Counted from the first letter of the stretch, positions 1 to 9,228 are shown. The stretch is DNA of 26,959 nucleotides from Trueperaceae bacterium (GCA_029210865.1 JARGGE010000001.1:1-26959); one strand, 5' to 3'. The notes: generated by a model not told the origin, from the letters alone. Program-made: numbers and translations.

Positions 1-614
1 TGACCCTCGCGTGCCCAGCCGTCGAGGTGGACCATCAGCGGGGCACCCGTCACCGCCTGAGCGCGCGCCGCAGCCCGAAGCGACATCTGCTCGCTCGGCG
101 TGATGGGGCTCGAGGTGCCGATCTCGCCGATGATGCCGGCCCGAACGCCCGTGTCCCCCACGCCGACACGAACGTCGCGGATGAGTTCCTCGGTCAGGTC
201 CTCGAGCGTTCGGCGCAGGAAAGCCTCACCCAGGCTGATCTCGGTGTAGTAGCCGCTCCCCATGATGACGTTCAGGCCCGTCCGTCGAGCGACGCGTCGC
301 AGCGCGGCCGCATCTCGGCCCATGGAGACGTTGGACGCGTCCACGATCGTGCGCCCACCCAACGCGACGAGGGCGTCGAGTTCGGCAACGGCGACGTCGA
401 CGTCTCCCTGGGTCAGGTTGTCGCGAACTAGGAAGGGATCGAAGCGTAGATCGCCGAGCGTCTCGATCGAGACCCGGAACTCAGAACGCGCCACGCGCGT
501 CGCCTCCGAGGGCTCGTTCCAGTAGTCGGAGACGTCGAAGAGGACGTGCTCGTGGACGAGCGTGATCCCGAGCTCGTCGCGCGGGATGGGGCCTAACACG
601 CCGATGGCGTTCAT
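1..614 (-). CDS. Phosphotriesterase-family (PHP/PTER-like) amidohydrolase, copy 2; 3' end runs off the window
   Basis: Not in the ORF track; hand translation from ATG at 614 (ATGA overlap with the upstream stop) gives MNAIGVLGPIPRDELGITLVHEHVLFD...GGRTIVDAS...TGLNVIMGSGYY...RAGIIGEIGTS...LMVHLDGW, with HxH, the GEIG Glu and a beta6 His. Confidence 0.92.
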   Translation of the reverse strand, partial: MNAIGVLGPIPRDELGITLVHEHVLFDVSDYWNEPSEATRVARSEFRVSIETLGDLRFDPFLVRDNLTQGDVDVAVAELDALVALGGRTIVDASNVSMGRDAAALRRVARRTGLNVIMGSGYYTEISLGEAFLRRTLEDLTEELIRDVRVGVGDTGVRAGIIGEIGTSSPITPSEQMSLRAAARAQAVTGAPLMVHLDGWAREG

Positions 615-1639
615 GCGGGCACCGCCAGTATCTGGGCTGGGTTGCTGACGAGCAGCGTATCGATCTGGGCGTCTCCAACGCCGTGGCGCCGAAGCCGCGG
701 GACGAAATGATCGAGGAGGTACGCGTAGCCGTTCCCGCCATGGCGAACGAGCATCATCTTGAGGAACACGTCATGGCTCAGCAGCAGCCGGCGTAGGTGA
801 CCCCGCTCGATGAGACCGACGATGCCACGAGCGCTCTCCTCGTCGCTCGGGGCCTGAAGGTCGTCCGGACCGAAGTAGTAGTCGAGACCGATCATGTCGT
901 ACGCCAGGTACGCGCCGCGATCAGCGAGCGATTGCTGATAATCGACATCCCACCACGAGGGGTTCATGTGGTCCAGGATCGTCCGCTCGATGTCGCCACC
1001 GTTCTCGGCAACGATGTCCAGCACCGCATGACCGTGGCGTCCCCAGGCATGGAGGTGGACGCTGAGCGCCACCCCAGTCTCCGCCTGTGCACGCGCAGAC
1101 GCCGCCAGCACCTTGCGCTCCTGCGGCGTGAAGGCCGGACCCGTGCCGATCTCGCCGATGTAGCCGGCACGCACGCCGGTCTGCTCGTCGCCGTCGACGA
1201 GGTCCGCGATCATGATCGCTGCGAGCTCCGACACCGAGGCGCCGGCGACGTACGGTGGGTGCGTTCGCTCGAGGTAGAAACCGGTACCCATCACCACGTT
1301 GAGCCCTGTCCTGCGCGCGACGCGCTGAAGGGCGTGCGGATCGCGCCCGATGCCGCGACAGGTAGCGTCGACGATCGTACGACCGCCGGCGTCCCGGAAC
1401 CGCGAGGCCTCCTCGACCGCGACGTCCTCGTCGAACAACGAGCAGTTGTCGAGGTTCATGAACGGGTCGTTGCGCAAGGCGTTCAGAAGATCGGGCGTCA
1501 CGGGGCGCAGCGCCAAGGCCTTCCGGGATGCCTCCGTAGGCGATCGCCATGAGGGCCGAGCGTCCAGGAAGAGGTGCTCGTGGGTCAGCGTGATACCCAG
1601 TTCAGCTGGTGGGATCGGCCCGAGGACGCCCTGGATCAT
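611..1639 (-). CDS. Phosphotriesterase-family (PHP/PTER-like) amidohydrolase, copy 1 (342 aa)
   Basis: C-terminal part of ORF 611..2476 from MIQGVLGP. Motifs THEHL, GYIGEIG, SVHLH, LDHM, LSHD form the binuclear-metal ligand set. ATG at 1639 overlaps the permease TGA. Confidence 0.95.
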   Translation of the reverse strand: MIQGVLGPIPPAELGITLTHEHLFLDARPSWRSPTEASRKALALRPVTPDLLNALRNDPFMNLDNCSLFDEDVAVEEASRFRDAGGRTIVDATCRGIGRDPHALQRVARRTGLNVVMGTGFYLERTHPPYVAGASVSELAAIMIADLVDGDEQTGVRAGYIGEIGTGPAFTPQERKVLAASARAQAETGVALSVHLHAWGRHGHAVLDIVAENGGDIERTILDHMNPSWWDVDYQQSLADRGAYLAYDMIGLDYYFGPDDLQAPSDEESARGIVGLIERGHLRRLLLSHDVFLKMMLVRHGGNGYAYLLDHFVPRLRRHGVGDAQIDTLLVSNPAQILAVPA

Positions 1640-2619
1640 CGGGGGCTCCGGCGCTGTCGTGCGAGCACCAAGTTGAACCAGATGGCGGCCAGGATGATCG
1701 CGCCCTCGATGATCTGCTGGTAGAAGGCATCGGTCTGGGCGAGGATCAGTCCGTTGCCGATCATGGCCAGCAGCAACGTGCCCATGACGGTGCCCAGCAT
1801 GCGCCCCTCGCCCCCGAAGAGGTTGGTGCCGCCGACGATGACGGCGGCGATCACCTGCAACTCGAACGCAACGCCCGAGTACGAGGAACCGGATGCGAGG
1901 CGAGCCGACGTCACCATGCCGCCAAGGGCGACCGCCAGGCCGCTGAACATGAAGACGAACAACTTGATGCGCCGCACGTTGACCCCGGCACGCCGCACAC
2001 CCTCCTCGTTGCTGCCGATCCCGGTGACGTAAAGGCCGAAGCGGGTGTGGTTGAGGAGCACATAGCCGACGATGACGACGATGATCGCAAGGATGGCCGG
2101 AACGGGCACGTCCAGGACTCGCCCCCTGCCTAGCCAGAGGAAAGGGCTGTCCGGCGCGACAGGGATCGAGTACCCCTTGGTGATCAACTGTGCCGTTCCC
2201 CTCAATATTGAGAGGGTCGCAAGTGTCACGATGAAGGCAGGGATCGATTGGTAGGCAGTGAAATAGCCGTTGAACCACCCGAGCGCGACGCCGAGGGCCA
2301 GCATCGCCAGTACCATGAGCCAGATCGGCCACCCGACGCTCAAGCTCAGAGCCGAGAGGACGGCGATGACGGCCAGCATCGACCCGACCGAGAGGTCGAT
2401 CCCACCGACGGTGATGACGAAGGTCATCCCGACGGCCACGATCAGGGTCGGGGCCGCCTGACGAACGATGTTCCACAGGTTGGCGCTCGTGACGAAGCGA
2501 TCGGACGTGGCCGCCAACAGAAGGAACACCACGACGAAGATGGCCAGCAGAGTGAGTTGGAAGACGGTGTCGGGGCTGCGAAGGCGCCTTAGGAGGCCGT
2601 CGCGCATGGGCTTCGTCAT
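1636..2619 (-). CDS. Monosaccharide-type (CUT2) ABC transporter permease, RbsC-like
   Basis: GGIDLSVGS motif, IPAFIVTLATL, GSNEEGVRRAGVNV loop, ELQVIAAVIVGG, many TM segments. ATG 2619 follows AGGTGG; GTG 2628 is an alternative start. Confidence 0.93.
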   Translation of the reverse strand: MTKPMRDGLLRRLRSPDTVFQLTLLAIFVVVFLLLAATSDRFVTSANLWNIVRQAAPTLIVAVGMTFVITVGGIDLSVGSMLAVIAVLSALSLSVGWPIWLMVLAMLALGVALGWFNGYFTAYQSIPAFIVTLATLSILRGTAQLITKGYSIPVAPDSPFLWLGRGRVLDVPVPAILAIIVVIVGYVLLNHTRFGLYVTGIGSNEEGVRRAGVNVRRIKLFVFMFSGLAVALGGMVTSARLASGSSYSGVAFELQVIAAVIVGGTNLFGGEGRMLGTVMGTLLLAMIGNGLILAQTDAFYQQIIEGAIILAAIWFNLVLARQRRSPR

Positions 2620-2628
2620 GGTGGCCAC

Positions 2629-3405
2629 CTACGCCTGGACGATGAGCTTGATGACTTCTTCGAGGTCCGTCTCGGACGTGGCTCGCTCCGCTACCTTGCG
2701 CCCTTCGTACATGAACATGATTCGATCGGTCACCTCGAGCACGTCCTGCAAACGATGACTGATGAGGATGACGCCCACGCCCTCACGTTTGAGTCGCCGG
2801 ATCAGCTCCAGGACCTCCTCGACCTCCTTGACGGCAAGGGCCGCCGTGGGCTCGTCGAGGATGAGCACCTTCGGCTCGTACGCCACGCTTCGTCCGATGG
2901 CGATGGCCTGGCGCTGGCCGCCCGAAAGGTTCTTCACTTTGGCGTAGGTCGATGGAACCTTGATCTGGAGGCGCCCCAACACCTCGGCCGCCTGGGCGTG
3001 GAGGCGCCGATAGTCCAGCAAGGGCACGCCCAGGACCCGTCGGACCGGTTCGCGTCCGAGGAAGAGGTTCTGGGCAACGTCGATGGTGTCGCACAAGGAC
3101 AGGTCCTGGTAGACCATCTCGAGACGCTCGCTCCGGGCGTCGGCAGGTGATCGGAAGTGGACCTCGTGGCCGTCGAGTCGGTAGCTACCAGCGTCCGCGA
3201 TGTAAGCGCCGCTGATCACCTTCATCAGTGTCGACTTGCCGGCACCGTTGTCGCCGACGACCCCGAGAACCTCGCCTGGATGCAGCGTCAGATCGACCCC
3301 GCTCAACGCCGTGATGGGACCGAAGCGCTTCTCGATCCCGGAGAGCTCGAGGACCGGTTGCTGGTTCATGCGGGATACCGGTGGGGCGGGTACGACCCGC
3401 CCCAC
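2629..3405 (-). CDS. CUT2 ABC transporter ATP-binding protein, single NBD
   Basis: Walker A GDNGAGKS, signature LSGGQRQ, Walker B LILDEPT, H-loop ISH. Start is GTG 3405 (after AGGAGG) or ATG 3369. Confidence 0.95.
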   Translation of the reverse strand: MGRVVPAPPVSRMNQQPVLELSGIEKRFGPITALSGVDLTLHPGEVLGVVGDNGAGKSTLMKVISGAYIADAGSYRLDGHEVHFRSPADARSERLEMVYQDLSLCDTIDVAQNLFLGREPVRRVLGVPLLDYRRLHAQAAEVLGRLQIKVPSTYAKVKNLSGGQRQAIAIGRSVAYEPKVLILDEPTAALAVKEVEEVLELIRRLKREGVGVILISHRLQDVLEVTDRIMFMYEGRKVAERATSETDLEEVIKLIVQA

Positions 3406-3407
3406 CG
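3379..3407 (-). promoter_or_regulatory. 13-bp perfect stem-loop between the SBP stop and the ATPase start
   Basis: CGGTGGGGCGGGT-(3 nt)-ACCCGCCCCACCG; covers GTG 3405-3403. Confidence 0.7.
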
Positions 3408-3415
3408 AGCCTCCT

Positions 3416-4354
3416 TCACTCGAACAGGTAGCGGAAGTCGTCGACGTTGTCGACGGTAACGATGTCGATGGGGATGAGAATCTCGAGGCCGACCTCGTTG
3501 CCAGCGATCATCTCGAGCGAGGCCCGGACCGCTTCGAAGCCCTCCTGGTAAGGGTTCTGCTGGACGACGGCCTGGACGAAACCCTGCTCGATGCCACGAA
3601 CCGCCTGCGCCGTGAGGTCCCAACCGATGATTCGGACGGTTTCCGTGCGTCCCTGAGATTCCACGGCGGCGATCGAACCGATGAGGGCTGGCTCGCCCGT
3701 CGCGTAGACGATGTCGAGATCGCTCGTGCCGGTCATGAGGTTCTCGGCTGCCGTCAGCGCGATCTCCTGCTGGTTCTGTCCGTCCACGACGTTGACGATC
3801 TCGATGCCATCGACGCCCGTCAGCACCTCGACGAACCCGTCGCGACGCAGGTTCTGGATGAACGAGTTCAGGGCCCCGACGATCCCGACCTTGGCGGTGC
3901 CGCCAAGCTCGTCGTTGATGTACGCCAGCGTGTACTCACCAGCCTGACGGCCGGCCCCGTAGTTGTCGACGCCGATGAAGGTGTTGGCCGGCGGAGAAGC
4001 TACCTGAGCGTCGATTGCGACCACGGGAATGCCGGCGTCTCGAGCGGCCTGTAGCGCCGGCACAATGCCGTTGACGTCGATCGCGACGACGATGATCGCA
4101 TCCTTCTGCTGCGTGATGAAGCTCTCGATGGCACGTACCTGACGGTCCGGATCGTTGTTGGAGTCGACGATCTGGACTTCGGCGCCGAACTGGTTGGCGG
4201 CGTCGAGCGCACCATCGTTGATCTGGTTGAAGAAGAGGGCCTGCAGGTTGATCGTGCTCAGGCCGATCTGCGGCGTACCTTGGGCGAATGCCGCGCCCCC
4301 GACGAGACCGAGGATGGCGACGGCGAAGAGAAGCGTGCGCGCGGTGCGACTCAT
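3416..4354 (-). CDS. Sugar ABC transporter periplasmic substrate-binding protein, RbsB-like (312 aa)
   Basis: GGAGG RBS, Sec signal MSRTARTLLFAVAILGLVGGAAFAQ, and Peripla_BP_4-type motifs (FFNQINDG, DAIIVVAID, IGVDNYGAG, VVQQNPYQEG). Confidence 0.93.
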   Translation of the reverse strand: MSRTARTLLFAVAILGLVGGAAFAQGTPQIGLSTINLQALFFNQINDGALDAANQFGAEVQIVDSNNDPDRQVRAIESFITQQKDAIIVVAIDVNGIVPALQAARDAGIPVVAIDAQVASPPANTFIGVDNYGAGRQAGEYTLAYINDELGGTAKVGIVGALNSFIQNLRRDGFVEVLTGVDGIEIVNVVDGQNQQEIALTAAENLMTGTSDLDIVYATGEPALIGSIAAVESQGRTETVRIIGWDLTAQAVRGIEQGFVQAVVQQNPYQEGFEAVRASLEMIAGNEVGLEILIPIDIVTVDNVDDFRYLFE

Positions 4355-4409
4355 ATGGATCCTCCATGCGTCTGGCGATTCGTGACCTGTTCGGCGTGTC
4401 GTCCAGATG

Positions 4410-5216
4410 TCAGGTCGAGCTTCGGTCAGAAACCACCCCCTTCGAACCCGTTGAATCCTCAACACGCGCCAACCAGCGCACGAGGTTGACCCAGAGGCGC
4501 CCGTAATGCGTCCACTCGACGAAGGCCGGCGGACCCCAATGCGGGCCACAGTCCGACGCGAACGCGGCGGACCTACCACGACCGAACTCGCCGACGGCCA
4601 GGAACACGTCATCGCGAACGCGGGCGACGACCTGGCCGGTGGGGGCCGGGCGCAATTGGTTGTAACCAAGGAACTGAGGCCAGGGTCCTTCGATACCTGC
4701 AAGGACAGGGTGATCCGGCGTGACGACGTGCGGGGTGACGCCCTGCGGCAACTCGACCCTGTCGTCGCCGTCGCACATCTCGACTGGCAGCACGGCGGCG
4801 ATCGACGTTCGCTGGTACCGAGCCTTGCCGTCGATCCCGGAGAACGATAGGTAGCCACCGATCATGGCCAGTCCTCCGCCGCCCAGTACGTAATCACGGA
4901 GCAGGTCGCAACGGTTCGGCTGCGGTCGAGAGTGCACGAAGGTATCGGGTGACAGTAGCAGGGTGTTGCTCCCGATATCGCTCAACAGGACCACGTCGAA
5001 CGACGCGAACTCCTCCATCGACGAGGGGAACTCACGGACCGCCTCGTGGTTCCTCAAGAAGGTCACGGAAGCACCGCCGGCCTCCAAGCCAGCGATCAAC
5101 CACGAAGCGCCCTCCGCGTACTCGCTGGTGGTGAACGAATCGAAACCCTTGACGTGGACCGTGTGGGACATCCAGCTCTCACCGGCAAGGAGGACTCGAA
5201 CTGGCGGCATCGACAT
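4410..5216 (-). CDS. GATase1-like (DUF1355-type) putative glutamine amidotransferase-fold protein
   Basis: VLLAGESW..H.KGFDSF, FDVVLLSDIGSNTLLL, GGGLAMIGGYLSFSGIDGKARY, SDCGPHWGP. ATG 5216 overlaps the gntR TGA. Confidence 0.85.
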   Translation of the reverse strand: MSMPPVRVLLAGESWMSHTVHVKGFDSFTTSEYAEGASWLIAGLEAGGASVTFLRNHEAVREFPSSMEEFASFDVVLLSDIGSNTLLLSPDTFVHSRPQPNRCDLLRDYVLGGGGLAMIGGYLSFSGIDGKARYQRTSIAAVLPVEMCDGDDRVELPQGVTPHVVTPDHPVLAGIEGPWPQFLGYNQLRPAPTGQVVARVRDDVFLAVGEFGRGRSAAFASDCGPHWGPPAFVEWTHYGRLWVNLVRWLARVEDSTGSKGVVSDRSST

Positions 5217-5974
5217 CAAACCCCTCTCGTCTGCTGCACGTAGAACTTGTACTTGTCGGCGCGGTAGCGGATGCAGGCGCTCTCGATCGGTTCGCCGGTC
5301 TGCGAGAACGCGAAGCGGCGCACGCAAAGCAGGGGCGCGCCCTCCGCGATGCCGAGCAGGTTGGCGTCCACCGTTGATGCGACCTCCGCGGAGATGACTT
5401 CCTCGGCCGTCGTGACGAAGACCCCGAAGCGGGCCTCCAGGAGTCGGTAGAGCGAGTCGTCGCCCAGGTCCTCGGCGGATACCGCCAGCCGCGGTAGCGG
5501 CAGATGACTCTGCTGCAACGAGATCGGTTCATCGCCAGCGAAGCGCAGGCGGTCGATGCGTCGAACGAGACGAACGTCGCTGCCGAAGTGCGCTGCGACG
5601 TCCTCCGCAGGAGGTCCGTCCGTGACCTGCAGGAGGCGGCTGCTCGAGCGCAGCCCGCGCCGCCACATGTCCTCGGAGAAGCTCGACAGGCGAGTGGCGT
5701 CGAAGGCGTCCCTGGTGCGTGCGACGAAGGTGCCTTTACCCTGCTGCCGAACGAGGTAACCACCGTTGGCGAGGTCGACGAGCGCCTCGCGAATCGTCGT
5801 CCGGCTCACGTGGTAGCGCGCCGCGATCTCGCGCTCGGTCAGGAATGCTTCTCCCGGTCGATAAGAACCCTCGGTGATCTGCTGCTGGAGCGCGTTCCGG
5901 AGTTGGACGTGCAGCGGTACACCGCTGTTTCGGTCCAGCCGGTCCCACGACGCCTCAATAGCGTAACTTGACAT
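5216..5974 (-). CDS. GntR-family transcriptional regulator, HutC subfamily (wHTH + UTRA)
   Basis: VPLHVQL...FLTEREIAARYHVSRTTIREALVDL...QGKGTFV, then RLSSFSEDM and C-terminal YRADKYKF. Confidence 0.95.
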   Translation of the reverse strand: MSSYAIEASWDRLDRNSGVPLHVQLRNALQQQITEGSYRPGEAFLTEREIAARYHVSRTTIREALVDLANGGYLVRQQGKGTFVARTRDAFDATRLSSFSEDMWRRGLRSSSRLLQVTDGPPAEDVAAHFGSDVRLVRRIDRLRFAGDEPISLQQSHLPLPRLAVSAEDLGDDSLYRLLEARFGVFVTTAEEVISAEVASTVDANLLGIAEGAPLLCVRRFAFSQTGEPIESACIRYRADKYKFYVQQTRGV

Positions 5975-5975
5975 G

Positions 5976-6013
5976 TTGTCATGACAATACGACCGATTCG
6001 CGGACGGGGTCAA
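5976..6013 (-). promoter_or_regulatory. Sigma70-type promoter with an overlapping palindromic operator for the gntR operon
   Basis: -35 TTGACC (6013-6008), 18-nt spacer, -10 TATTGT (5989-5984). Perfect palindrome TTGTCATGACAA at 5976-5987; no SD before ATG 5974. Confidence 0.75.
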
Positions 6014-6051
6014 GCCTGGATGGGCCCAGGTTCGGGGGTGGCGATCCAGTG

Positions 6052-6530
6052 CTAGTCAGAGGTCTGCATGGCAACCTGCAGCCGGACGAACTCGGGGATC
6101 GAACGGCCGTCGCCCATGGGGTAATGGACCGTCCCCCGGAGCACCCTCGATTCGAGGAAGAAGGTCGATCGGCCGGCGGCGGTGTCGCTGGCGCCGGGCT
6201 GGATCATGCCGTAGGCGTGCGCGACCGTCATCGACAGGTCCTCGATGATCGGGAACGGGGTGTCGACGTCGAAGTTCATTGCCATCCTTCGGTCCCACAC
6301 GATGGGCGTGTAGGTGCTATCGATCGACGACCCGAGGTGCTCGCAACCCAGTTTCTGGAACTCCGGATACGCCTTGGTGGACGCGAGATGAACTCCGTGG
6401 TGCACACCGGCGTGAAGTCGGCGGGGTGCGAGAACAGGATCAACCACTTGCTCTCGTAGTCCGACAGCCTGCGCTTCCCATGGGTGGTGTTCGCCGTTGA
6501 AGCCGGGCGCCGGTTCGTTCAGACGCGGTC
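6052..6530 (-). pseudogene. Peroxiredoxin (AhpC/TSA, Prx6-like) remnant
   Basis: Three frame segments: [10 protein letters not shown] / [34 protein letters not shown] / [15 protein letters not shown]...FPIIEDLSMTVAHAYGMIQPG...YPMGDGRSIPEFVRL. Frameshifts at about 6492 and 6385; no start codon; ends early. Confidence 0.85.
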
Positions 6531-7290
6531 CTTCGAATGCTTGGCCCATGCGGCCATCGTAGTCCTCGTCCGCTCGCTCGGAGCGCCGACCAGCGCGAGG
6601 TGCGCGGCCAACGCCGTGCGCGTGGTGGACAGCGCCCAGACGCGCAGGTCGTGTACGTTGCGGACGCCGTCGTGCGCCCCCAGCCAGTCGACCACGGCCT
6701 GACGGTTGACCGCCTAGGGCACACCGTCCGGCTCCAACCGCAACGAATCGCGCAGCGAGCGCCACGCGGTCACCGCGATCAGCAGGCTCACCGCAATGGC
6801 CGCCGCCGGGTCAAGCCAGTTCCAGCCGGTCAGCATGATCGCGACGCCGCGACGACCACCGCCCACGACGCGGTCGCATCGGCGGCCGTGTGCAGGACCG
6901 CGCCCTTGGCGTTCTGGTCGACCTTCTGAGGCCTCACGAACTGCGGCGCCGAGCTGGTGTTCGCGCCAACGCCGGCCAGCGCCGCCAGCAGCACCGCCAG
7001 GGCCGGTATGTCGCCCGGGCTCTGGAACCGGTGCGGGGCTTCCCAGATCACCACCACGGCGCCGATCAGGATCGCTACGGCGTTCAACATGGCGGCGAAG
7101 ATCGTGGCGCGGCCCCAACCGAAAGTGTGCGTCGCGCTCCCCACGCGCGTTGCCAGCACCGCCGCGCTCCAGGCGATCAGGAGGCCGGCCACGTCGGTGA
7201 GGCTGTGCGCGGCATTGGCCAGCAGTGCGAGCGACCCGGTCAGCAGCCCCGCCGTCGCTTCGACGACGACGTAGGCCGTGTTGAGCCTCC
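6519..7290 (-). pseudogene. Cation diffusion facilitator (CzcD/ZitB-like) remnant
   Basis: LNTAYVVVEA...SLALLANAAHSLTD...HTFGWGRATI...GAVLHTAAD; frameshift near 6848; WLDPAAAIAVS; in-frame TAG at 6714-6716; then VHDLRVWALST. N-terminus is missing. Confidence 0.85.
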
Positions 7291-7489
7291 ATCGGTTCCC
7301 CGGCACTCCAACTTCGACCCAAGCGTGAGGGGCAAGGCGCCGACAGGCGGGCTCGCTTGACTTGGGAATCGTGTCCCGTCGATGGCGGGAGTACAGTGCA
7401 CCCGAACGGCATTCGTGCTTCTCCGACCAACGCACGCGACGGTTGACCGCGCCCAAGGGCGAGTGACTGGACCCCGCTTTTTGCTCCAC

Positions 7490-8359
7490 TCACGGTGTAG
7501 GTACCGGCGCCAGCGTAGCTGACGCAGTTCGGTTGAGAACCTCGATCGGGGTGGCGTCCCCGAGCGCACCATGCGGCCGCTCCTCGTTGAACCACCGGCG
7601 CCAACCATCGAGCACGACCTGCGCCTCCCGAACGCTCTGGAACGACTCTTGATCGAGCAGCTCGTCGCGCAAACGAGCGTGGAACGACTCCGCGAACGGG
7701 TTCTGCCACGGCGCGCCCGGCGCGATGAACATCGTCTGCACGCCGGACGCGGCGAGGAACGCCTGGATCGCGTGCGCCACGAACTCCAGACCGTTGTCGC
7801 TCCTGACGTGATTCGGTGGCCCGTACACGACCATCAGGTTCTCCACGGCGTCGATGACGTCCTTCGCCTTGAAGCTCCGACCGGCGCGAAGCGCGAGGCA
7901 GGTCTTCGAGAACTCGTCGGTGACCGTCAAGATCTTCAGCACGCCACCATCGCTGGTGGCGTCGAACAGGAAGTCGATCGCCCAGACGTCGTGCGGCCGT
8001 GTCGCGCGGTAGCGCTCGCTGCCGTCCGTCTGCGGACCCAGACGGCGCCGCTTCGGCCCGCGCGCCGGCACGCCGAGGCTATGCTGGCGCCACAACCTCG
8101 CGACGCGCTTCTTGTTCACCCGCCAGCCCTCCCGACGGAGCTGGACGGTGATCTTGCGGTACCCGAGCCGCGCATGCTGCTCGGAGAGCGCGTGCAGGCG
8201 CCGCACCAACTTCGCGTCCGCCGCCGGACGGGTCGGCCGGTACCGCACCACGCTGCGCGCGATCCCGAGCACCCTGCAGGCCCTGCGTTCGCTGACGCCG
8301 AGCACCCGTGTGACGTGCTTGACGGCCGATCGTTGCCGTTCGGCCGTCAGTACTTTCCC
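7490..8359 (-). CDS. IS3 transposase OrfB (HTH_21 + rve integrase core), reached by -1 frameshift
   Basis: SERRACRVLG, LGYRKITVQL, VNKKRVARLW, DDE residues WAIDF / SDNGLEF / FAESFHARLRDELL. Confidence 0.92.
   Translation of the reverse strand, partial: GKVLTAERQRSAVKHVTRVLGVSERRACRVLGIARSVVRYRPTRPAADAKLVRRLHALSEQHARLGYRKITVQLRREGWRVNKKRVARLWRQHSLGVPARGPKRRRLGPQTDGSERYRATRPHDVWAIDFLFDATSDGGVLKILTVTDEFSKTCLALRAGRSFKAKDVIDAVENLMVVYGPPNHVRSDNGLEFVAHAIQAFLAASGVQTMFIAPGAPWQNPFAESFHARLRDELLDQESFQSVREAQVVLDGWRRWFNEERPHGALGDATPIEVLNRTASATLAPVPTP
8320..8359 (-). promoter_or_regulatory. Programmed -1 ribosomal frameshift signal
   Basis: Slippery heptamer G GGA AAG (8359-8353) in the orfA frame, followed by a 10-bp perfect stem TGACGGCCGA / TCGGCCGTCA (8349-8320). 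Confidence 0.8.
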
Positions 8360-8628
8360 TCGACCGCCTCCTCCAGGATGCTGTTGTCGAGCTCCTTCTC
8401 GGCCAGGAGCCGCTTCAGGCGCGCGTTCTCCTTCTCGAGCTCCTTGAGGCGCTTGGCGTCGTCGCGGTTCATGCCGCCGTACTGCTTGCGCCAGCGGTAG
8501 ACGGTCCATTCGGCGACCTCCACGCGCTTCGCGGCGGCCGCGACCGACAGGCCCTCGGTGGCCTGCAGGCGACCGATCTCGCGCAACTTCTAGACCGCCT
8601 GCTCCGGCGAGTGCATCTTGCCCTTCAT
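8347..8628 (-). pseudogene. IS3 transposase OrfA with a premature amber codon
   Basis: SD GGAGGGAG, ATG 8628: MKGKMHSPEQAV*KLREI...WTVYRWRKQYGGM...RLKELEKENARLKRLLAE; TAG at codon 13 (8592-8590). Confidence 0.88.
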
Positions 8629-8682
8629 GGGACTCCCTCCTGGAATCCCACACCTTAGCTGGACCAAACAACGGGGGTTGGA

Positions 8683-9228
8683 TCAGGTGCCCTCCAGGTA
8701 GAACAACGGCAGGTGCCAGAGCGCCCAGAAGACGCCCACCACCAGGGCCGCACCGGCCGCCGGCAGCCGCCGCTGCAGGGCGTTCTGCGCGTACCCGCGC
8801 CAGGCCGGCTCCTCGACGATGCCCGCGAGGAGGCCGACGAGGAGGAAGGTGACCGGACCGGATCCCGCGACCAGCGACCAGGGCGCCGCACCGCGGGTCA
8901 GGGCGGTCCACACGAGCGGCGCCCCGGCCAGGACGACGGCCAACGAGAGCGCGATGACGTACCGGCGGGGCGCAACCGAACGCGGATCGAGGGCGCGTCG
9001 CCAGAAGGCGCGTGGTGGCGCGTGCCACCACCCGGCCGCCACGAAGCCGGCGGTGACCACCAGGGGTCCCAGCATGCCCGCGATCGTCAGCAGCACGGTC
9101 GGGTACGCGAGCCACGGCTGGCCGGTCAGGGTCGCCGGCCACAGGAACGCCCAGGTCCAGCCCACGACGGCCGCCAGGAACCACCAGGGGCGGGGGCGCC
9201 CGGCCGCCGCTCGTGCCGCAGGGGTCAC
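8683..9228 (-). pseudogene. CPBP (Abi/CAAX type II) intramembrane protease, 3'-truncated by the IS
   Basis: VEEPAWRGYAQ and FWALWHLP motifs. The stop is the terminal TGA of the IS and the last motif (HxxxN) is absent. GTG 9228 overlaps the upstream TGA. Confidence 0.85.

Follow-up and report, generated by a model that had tools for sequence, protein, structure and literature searches.

The window analysed here is a whole contig of 26,959 bases (C111; GCA_029210865.1, JARGGE010000001.1:1-26959) from a metagenome-assembled genome (MAG) of a Trueperaceae bacterium, a 90.75%-complete assembly of 666 contigs and 3.26 Mb. Its left end carries an operon that joins a protein of the GATase1_like family (PF07090, formerly DUF1355) to an ABC importer, two hydrolases of the phosphotriesterase (PTE) family and a GntR-type regulator. 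This operon is a contig-truncated copy, undamaged as far as visible, of a gene cluster conserved across the Deinococcota (in the same order) and the Alpha- and Gammaproteobacteria (rearranged). We favour, with moderate confidence, the reading that the cluster encodes a pathway of uptake, hydrolysis and phosphorylation for a small, most likely ribose-containing conjugate, and that in this lineage it lies on an acquired island and continues with genes for a BtpA/SgcQ protein and a PfkB-family kinase.

Seven co-oriented genes, each with a strong Pfam match, fill the minus strand between positions 1 and 5974, just as a first-pass annotation, made from the sequence alone, had described. In order of transcription (Pfam E-values in brackets), these are:

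5216-5974, minus strand: GntR/HutC-type regulator with a winged helix-turn-helix and a UTRA domain, 252 aa (GntR 1.4e-18, UTRA 1.9e-31)
4410-5216, minus strand: GATase1_like protein (PF07090, DUF1355), cytoplasmic, 268 aa (5.8e-102)
3416-4354, minus strand: CUT2-type periplasmic solute-binding protein with a signal peptide, 312 aa (Peripla_BP_4 3.8e-55)
2629-3405, minus strand: single-domain ABC ATPase, 246-258 aa, starting at GTG 3405 or ATG 3369 (ABC_tran 2e-31)
1636-2628, minus strand: CUT2-type permease, about 327 aa, starting at 2628 or 2619 (BPD_transp_2 1e-40)
611-1639, minus strand: PTE1, a binuclear-metal amidohydrolase of the Rsp3690/PTER subgroup, 342 aa (PTE 2.2e-71)
1-614, minus strand: PTE2, a tandem paralogue of PTE1, first 204 aa up to the contig end (PTE 1.5e-41, profile positions 3-162)

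No in-frame stop or frameshift was seen in any of the seven genes, and gene lengths (252, 312, 246, 327 and 342 aa) are identical to those of the closest relative, locus L009, with which the individual proteins share 69-89% identity. The annotation's description of the operon as intact and free of lesions thus stands for every visible reading frame, except that PTE2 runs off the contig end. Its claim that most of the genes are joined by stop/start overlaps went too far: true overlaps occur at three of the six junctions—regulator/DUF1355 (TGATG), permease/PTE1 (ATGA) and PTE1/PTE2 (ATGA)—whereas 0-55 nt separate the genes at the remaining three, good ribosome-binding sites being present at two of these. 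The regulator scores above the cut-offs for both of its domains (GntR 66.7 bits, UTRA 109.2 bits), belongs to the HutC subfamily and is 69% identical to its counterpart in L009; its best NCBIfam matches—PhnF, HutC and TreR—all fall under their cut-offs.

Gene-neighbourhood searches bore out the proposed linkage of DUF1355, PTE and ABC genes and extended it across phyla. Because many of the 80 metagenome loci surveyed from the PTE side are close copies of the Klebsiella type (a single Klebsiella-type order accounts for 15 of the 29 loci with at least 6 kb on each side of the PTE gene, here called well-flanked), the counts overstate independence and show consistency, not separate events: a permease gene lay no more than 300 nt upstream of the PTE gene in 57 of 64 and a DUF1355 gene no more than 300 nt downstream in 46 of 60, while the well-flanked loci included the binding protein, ATPase and permease in 28 of 29, BtpA in 26, DUF1355 in 25, TenA in 21 and an M20 peptidase in 19. 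The order GntR, DUF1355, binding protein, half-size ATPase, permease, one or two PTEs, BtpA/SgcQ and PfkB was found in L009, in the Trueperaceae loci L019 and L021, in the Meiothermus-type loci L011 and L012 and in loci L100 and L113; a TenA-family gene stands at one of the two ends of such clusters.

In annotated genomes of Alpha- and Gammaproteobacteria, the same gene set stands in a different order, with LacI or XRE-cupin as the regulator. The cluster of Rhizobium leguminosarum, for instance, carries genes for LacI, solute-binding protein, ATPase, permease, PTE, a ‘glutamine amidotransferase’, BtpA/SgcQ, TenA, ribokinase and an IMPase-family protein, and Pantoea, Klebsiella and Sinorhizobium meliloti M162 have the set plus an M20 peptidase. 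These clusters (L103-L106, the Klebsiella one from K. pneumoniae) share with the window the binding protein, half-size ATPase, permease, Rsp3690-like PTE and DUF1355, at 36-62% protein identity, and extend to BtpA/SgcQ, PfkB and a TenA-like protein; they differ from it in their regulators, in having one PTE, in being split into divergent units and in the added M20 or IMPase-family gene. The cluster in S. meliloti M162 appears to be strain-specific; on pSymB (L103, 14847-19443) its end is convergent with thiE and thiO, and a thiamine pyrophosphate (TPP) riboswitch (73.8 bits) precedes the thiamine operon.

Synteny with these relatives makes it probable that, past position 1, the operon continues with the rest of PTE2, BtpA/SgcQ and a ribokinase-like PfkB protein; the usual further partners in complete relatives are a Cys-less TenA-like protein (the commonest) and, often, an M20 peptidase. 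The first-pass annotation had noted that no kinase was visible and that the operon ran on leftward: the visible part of the operon indeed holds none, relatives carry PfkB past BtpA, and the continuation itself is predicted from them. Leftward extension of the contig, which the annotation had suggested as a check, gave no added sequence from the assembly, from metagenome contigs (where an exact 44-mer from positions 11-54 had no match) or from public sequencing runs (soil and sediment), in which at most 15% of sampled window words were found.

The DUF1355 protein scores 340.9 bits against the PF07090 cut-off of 27 and has more than 5000 homologues, and its closest solved structures are PDB 2gk3 (STM3548 of Salmonella; 6.3e-79) and 3soz (STM1381; 3.7e-72). 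The invariant residues in an alignment of DUF1355 homologues (A1) are polar—E13, H21, K23, D26, D80, D151-D152-R153-E155 and H226—and the alignment contains no invariant cysteine, the sole conserved one, C223, being Ile in a paralogue from the same genome; this pattern of conservation makes a classical amidotransferase mechanism, which relies on a Cys-His-Glu triad with an invariant nucleophilic Cys, look doubtful. The statement, in the annotation, that DUF1355 proteins recur beside PTE-like genes is correct as to the linkage, yet the association is not peculiar to PTEs: when the 80 best-matching PF07090 loci of species genomes are taken, a PTE gene lies within 10 kb in only about seven, while most adjoin ordinary two-domain CUT2 systems and several adjoin RbsD, in rbs-like operons of Bacillota. 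DUF1355 thus accompanies ribose-like uptake systems in general, and the specific unit is the combination of PTE, half-size-ATPase importer, BtpA and PfkB.

Two further PF07090 matches occur in the source genome. On contig C67 (L014; 42-6190, minus strand), a second family member ends an rbs-like operon in the order PfkB, ATPase, permease, solute-binding protein and DUF1355; the ATPase there is full-length and two-domain, and the contig stops just past DUF1355. A third, weak match of 27 bits (C177:12253-12471; L008) lies within an open frame of 837 aa, and neighbours in the ESM Atlas suggest a domain of the VWA/BatA-fused type. A search of the Atlas with the DUF1355 protein returned VWA/BatA-fused relatives only and gave no functional lead.

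Both hydrolases are clear members of PF02126 (PTE1 241 bits, PTE2 143 bits; cut-off 22.4). PTE1 and Rsp3690 of Rhodobacter sphaeroides (PDB 3k2g; 1.7e-110) can be aligned over their whole length, with about 55% of residues identical; PTE1 also matches Pmi1525 of Proteus mirabilis (PDB 3rhg; 1.4e-68), which falls in the same subgroup, and sponge PTER (PDB 9efa; 8e-55), where residues 4-337 align with 13-352 across a helical insertion; its bit scores are 372 against Rsp3690 and 189 against PTER. Metal-ligand positions H20, H22, E163, H195, H224 and D290 are invariant in an alignment of 17 PTE sequences (A3), in all 17 of which the bridging ligand is Glu (IGEIG); PTE1 shares this Glu-bridged binuclear centre with Rsp3690. 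The visible part of PTE2 has the HxH motif, the Glu and the first His. It shares 75% identity with PTE2 of L009, a full-length protein of 354 aa that is itself 47% identical to PTE1 and likewise has Rsp3690 as its best match (3.4e-98).

Rsp3690 and Pmi1525 are reported to have metal-stimulated carboxylate and methylphosphonate esterase activity, with no physiological substrate assigned (cited in PMC5341072). PTER is an amidase acting on N-acetyltaurine and N-acetyl-beta-alanine (PMC11374699; PMC13311154). The paper on its structure places the helical insertion between beta/alpha modules one and two, and describes it as a conserved feature of eukaryotic PTER that bacterial PTEs commonly lack. 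Residues given for the PTER substrate channel are Tyr69, Tyr131, Arg209 and Phe270. The full-length alignment of PTE1 with PTER, insertion included, suggests that hydrolysis of N-acetyl amides would be realistic chemistry for PTE1. The animal enzyme is nevertheless a much weaker match than Rsp3690, and the bacterial genes, unlike it, belong to a sugar-uptake operon.

NCBIfam offered three matches for the PTEs, all far under their cut-offs. We rejected a true organophosphate hydrolase (NF041153; 104 and 77 bits against 500), which has a carboxylated Lys in place of the bridging Glu, as well as the Escherichia coli PHP/YhfV equivalog (NF007373; 157.7 and 90.1 bits against 486) and a phospho-furanose lactonase (NF045706; about 80 and 34.6-56 bits against 630). 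PHP structures align with PTE1 from residue 67 onwards only, without the N-terminal insertion.

The importer is CUT2-like, as annotated, in its binding-protein and permease families; its ATPase departs from the usual fused two-domain form of about 500 aa in having one domain. The closest solved structure to the binding protein, 5hsg (4.3e-83), which we take to be an apo form, was deposited as a ‘putative ABC transporter’ protein and belongs to the type found in L103-L106; ribose-binding proteins are only distant relatives. Identity as a ribose transporter RbsABC (NF007936, NF007067, NF008030) was rejected, with scores of 102.6, 228 and 207 bits against cut-offs of 337, 398 and 745 for binding protein (RbsB), permease (RbsC) and ATPase, and the permease reached 221 bits against 378 for AraH; it is 88% identical to its counterpart in L009. 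Matches of the ATPase cover N-terminal halves only (positions 3-242 of 510 in AlsA and 2-238 of 501 in RbsA), and its counterparts in homologous clusters keep to this half size throughout, at 242-273 aa; FrcA is one of a few CUT2 examples of an ATPase of half length. Where the ATPase gene truly starts is uncertain because a G+C-rich hairpin (GGGCGGG-TCGTA-CCCGCCC; 3378-3398, minus strand) sits between GTG 3405, which has a strong AGGAGG, and the alternative ATG 3369.

Among the partner proteins of the relatives, the kinase has ribokinase as its best match, below cut-off. An AlphaFold model of a cluster BtpA (pLDDT 84) is a phosphate-binding TIM barrel whose fold neighbours—ThiE at the top, with HisF, IGPS, TrpA, hexulose-phosphate synthase, NanE, PRAI and TenI—reach a TM-score of about 0.6, with no close relative among them; a sequence search of the PDB gave marginal matches to TrpA and HisF only. 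The modelled fold fits an enzyme that would act on the phosphorylated product of the kinase, and would also fit the presence of a PRAI gene in the place of BtpA at locus L102. Cluster TenA proteins resemble TenA_E, in that they score 61-84 bits against a thiaminase II cut-off of 130 and have Ala at the position of the catalytic Cys135.

In two loci of the GCA_900175155.1 type (L102 and L117), a variant cluster has, in this order, two CUT2 permeases, an ADP-ribosylglycohydrolase, Amidohydro_1, a PRAI-family barrel, two PfkB kinases, two IU_nuc_hydro proteins, PTE and DUF1355, and may be the most informative context for substrate class. At L179, the PTE gene is followed by one for IU_nuc_hydro.

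A parallel between this operon and STM3548/STM3550 of Salmonella, noted in the first-pass annotation, is real. In Salmonella Typhimurium, the PfkB-family protein STM3547 (RikA), encoded just ahead of STM3548, has ribose kinase activity; its authors report that no studies exist of STM3548 (DUF1355), STM3549 (a DMT transporter) or STM3550 (PTE), and propose a pathway for an unknown carbon source (PMC13432705, 2026). The rikA-STM3548-STM3549-STM3550 cluster resembles the window's in setting a PfkB kinase, a GATase1_like protein (2gk3), a transporter and a PTE-family hydrolase side by side; it differs in that the transporter is a DMT carrier, not an ABC system, and BtpA, TenA and GntR/UTRA genes are not reported there. 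We infer that its PTE is of the Pmi1525 type, since the same study describes the cluster in Proteus (PMC13432705); PTE1 of the window matches Rsp3690 far better than Pmi1525. With rbsDACBK, the operon and its relatives share the binding-protein and permease families, a ribokinase-like partner kinase and DUF1355 paralogues that stand within rbs-like operons, whereas the half-size ATPase, the lack of RbsD, the sub-cut-off equivalog scores and the added PTE, DUF1355, BtpA and TenA set them apart.

Expression of the operon may be controlled at a site directly ahead of the regulator gene, where two features overlap:

5984-6013, minus strand: promoter-like site, TTGACC-18 nt-TATTGT, directly upstream of the regulator gene
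5976-5987, strand not applicable: 12-bp perfect palindrome TTGTCATGACAA that overlaps the -10 box and directly adjoins the start codon of the regulator

The promoter-like site is the sole sigma-70-like site in positions 1-7000, where 0.7 would be expected by chance, so that it counts for little alone; its -10 box ends 10 nt ahead of the start codon (ATG, 5974), a spacing that suggests a transcript with no leader or hardly any. The palindrome is unique within the window, even with up to two mismatches allowed. Ahead of the orthologous regulator gene, the equivalent position holds TTGTCATGACAA in L100, and the same or a near-identical motif in L009 (TTGTCATGATAA) and L019 (TGTCATGACA), although the regulators of these three loci share only 51-69% identity; a related motif, ATTGTTACAACAAT, precedes the regulator gene in L011. 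We regard TTGTCATGACAA as a candidate operator of the GntR/UTRA repressor, which would make the operon autoregulated.

On the observed gene content, linkage and metal-site conservation we build the following scheme, in which every catalytic step is proposed rather than observed. The repressor would sit on TTGTCATGACAA over the -10 box and let go on binding of the substrate, or of a phosphorylated intermediate, to its UTRA domain. The importer would take up a small pentose-containing conjugate, most likely a ribose-containing one—acylated, esterified or N-linked and riboside-like—from which the PTEs would strip an ester- or amide-linked group, by analogy with Rsp3690 (carboxylate esters) and PTER (N-acetyl amides), and DUF1355 might perform a second unmasking step. 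The PfkB kinase would then phosphorylate the sugar part, and the BtpA barrel would isomerise or cleave the phosphorylated product, as its fold relatives PRAI, HisF and TrpA do.

Uptake and hydrolysis of a sugar-linked ester, lactone or amide had been put forward in the first-pass annotation. We retain uptake and hydrolysis; genomic context points to a ribose-containing, riboside-like conjugate as the class of substrate, rather than to a generic sugar ester or lactone. This preference draws on the ribokinase-like kinase, RikA, the nucleoside-hydrolase variants at L102, L117 and L179, the RbsD-associated and rbs-like contexts of DUF1355, and the C67 operon. A homologous operon with an assigned substrate, which the annotation had named as grounds for abandoning its proposal, was not found in our literature search. 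Two locus tags found in one paper, SMb20620 and SMb20623, gave no lead to the cluster, their annotations there being sugar ABC transporter and methylthioribose kinase.

Several observations weigh against our favoured reading. The inference of ribose is by association, with scores far below cut-off for the RbsB, RbsC, RbsA and ribokinase equivalogs, and the authors of the RikA study themselves suspect the kinase of phosphorylating ribose off target (PMC13432705). The TenA-like and M20 partners are not explained by a simple riboside model. PfkB was found in only three of the 29 well-flanked loci, a low count that we put down to kinase queries that were too divergent, because the kinase does appear in the annotated records of Pantoea and Rhizobium. 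BtpA, TenA and a further piece of PTE were not found in the 90.75%-complete assembly, and the operon may for that reason be truly truncated in the source organism.

A more specific version of the favoured scheme is possible, if rather doubtful: an as yet undescribed cross-phylum salvage route for a modified riboside or ribosylamine-type metabolite, in which PTEs and DUF1355 would take acyl or ester groups off the substrate and the kinase would phosphorylate position 5. BtpA would then free ribose 5-phosphate by chemistry like that of TrpA or, as a reverse Amadori reaction, like that of PRAI/HisA, with an aminopyrimidine-like leaving group for the Cys-less TenA to deal with. Such a route, if true, would give DUF1355, BtpA/SgcQ and bacterial PTER-like enzymes their first functions at once.

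The frequent TenA and M20 partners invite another reading, salvage of the thiamine pyrimidine, in which a breakdown product or conjugate would be imported, deacylated by a PTE or M20 enzyme in the manner of YlmB, converted by the TenA-like protein from amino-hydroxymethylpyrimidine to hydroxymethylpyrimidine and then phosphorylated. YlmB of formylaminopyrimidine salvage is an M20-type deformylase, the cluster of S. meliloti M162 does converge with thiamine genes, and ThiE and TenI are among the fold matches of BtpA, the former at their head. Those matches, however, are no better than the ones to HisF and TrpA, all being equally weak, and no TPP riboswitch precedes the cluster in 14 loci searched, where the sole one found belongs to a thiC operon. 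Regulators of the cluster are sugar-type repressors (GntR/UTRA, LacI), its transporter and kinase are ribose-like rather than ThiXYZ- or ThiD-like, its TenA scores under the thiaminase II cut-off and lacks the catalytic Cys, and the source assembly yielded no TenA. We consider thiamine salvage unlikely on this balance.

It is also improbable that the pathway handles a phospho-sugar lactone or sugar acid, with PfkB phosphorylating the imported sugar or lactone and the PTEs acting as phospho-furanose lactonases of the Lmo2620 type. Such lactonases do belong to the PTE family, their equivalog NF045706 is among the three matched by both PTEs, and the cluster is constantly accompanied by a kinase and a phosphate-binding barrel; yet the scores against that equivalog are far below its cut-off, the PTEs fall in the Rsp3690/PTER subgroup (1e-110 and 3e-98), in which assays have revealed carboxylesterases, phosphonate esterases and N-acetyl amidases but not lactonases, and no lactone-making dehydrogenase is found among the conserved partners. 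The plainest idea—a second ribose (rbs) uptake operon with bystander hydrolases, or with PTEs that detoxify organophosphates—appears very improbable. It would account for the best named matches of binding protein, permease and ATPase, all to ribose, allose or arabinose systems, and for the PTE family name, which points to organophosphate hydrolysis. Against it, every rbs equivalog misses its cut-off about 2- to 3-fold, contig C67 already provides the genome with an rbs-like operon whose ATPase is full-length, and the permease-PTE-DUF1355 linkage is too tight, too widespread across phyla and too closely coupled in translation for bystanders; for organophosphates, the equivalog score of 104 bits against 500 and the bridging Glu instead of a carboxylated Lys tell the same way.

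PF07090 (2gk3, 3soz), the bacterial PTER-like PTEs (3k2g, 3rhg) and the 5hsg-type binding protein have long lacked a functional assignment despite having structures, BtpA/SgcQ lacks a solved close relative, and animal PTER was assigned its substrate only in 2024. Four unassigned families are thus joined in one tight, cross-phylum cluster with a ribokinase-like kinase and a candidate operator, and the question of their function can be reduced to a defined experiment in cultured hosts, as Klebsiella, Rhizobium and Meiothermus carry the same cluster. Among the cultured carriers are Pantoea sp. At-9b, R. leguminosarum UPM791 and Meiothermus silvanus. The cluster is already visible in cultured organisms, and its Salmonella variant is already published; the window's own addition is a two-PTE, GntR-regulated, horizontally acquired example, with no further new biology.

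Composition and surroundings together identify the operon as an accessory island gained by horizontal transfer rather than as a core trait of its lineage. G+C content is 63-68% in the operon, with 0.78-0.87 at third codon positions (GC3), versus a G+C content of 71-76% beyond about 9 kb and a GC3 of 0.97 in the next gene past a transposase. Between operon and high-G+C remainder lies the heavily decayed region that had been noted at the outset and that our analysis confirmed:

6052-9184: decayed stretch with an AhpC-TSA fragment, a split cation-efflux gene and an IS3-type transposase

The AhpC-TSA fragment covers profile positions 49-117 only, the cation-efflux gene is split over two overlapping frames (6714-7709 and 6830-7489), and the IS3-type transposase (HTH_21, rve, rve_3) lies in a long frame at 7490-9184. 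A survey of 121 genomes of the same order, accepting E-values up to 1e-60, found a PTE1-like gene in only three, one of which (G112) coincides by coordinates with the Trueperaceae MAG locus L019, and in neither of the two genomes of the same genus. tRNA genes, a usual landing site for genomic islands, stand directly upstream of homologous clusters in two relatives: one in L009 (8275-8346) and three in L021 (8601-9095).

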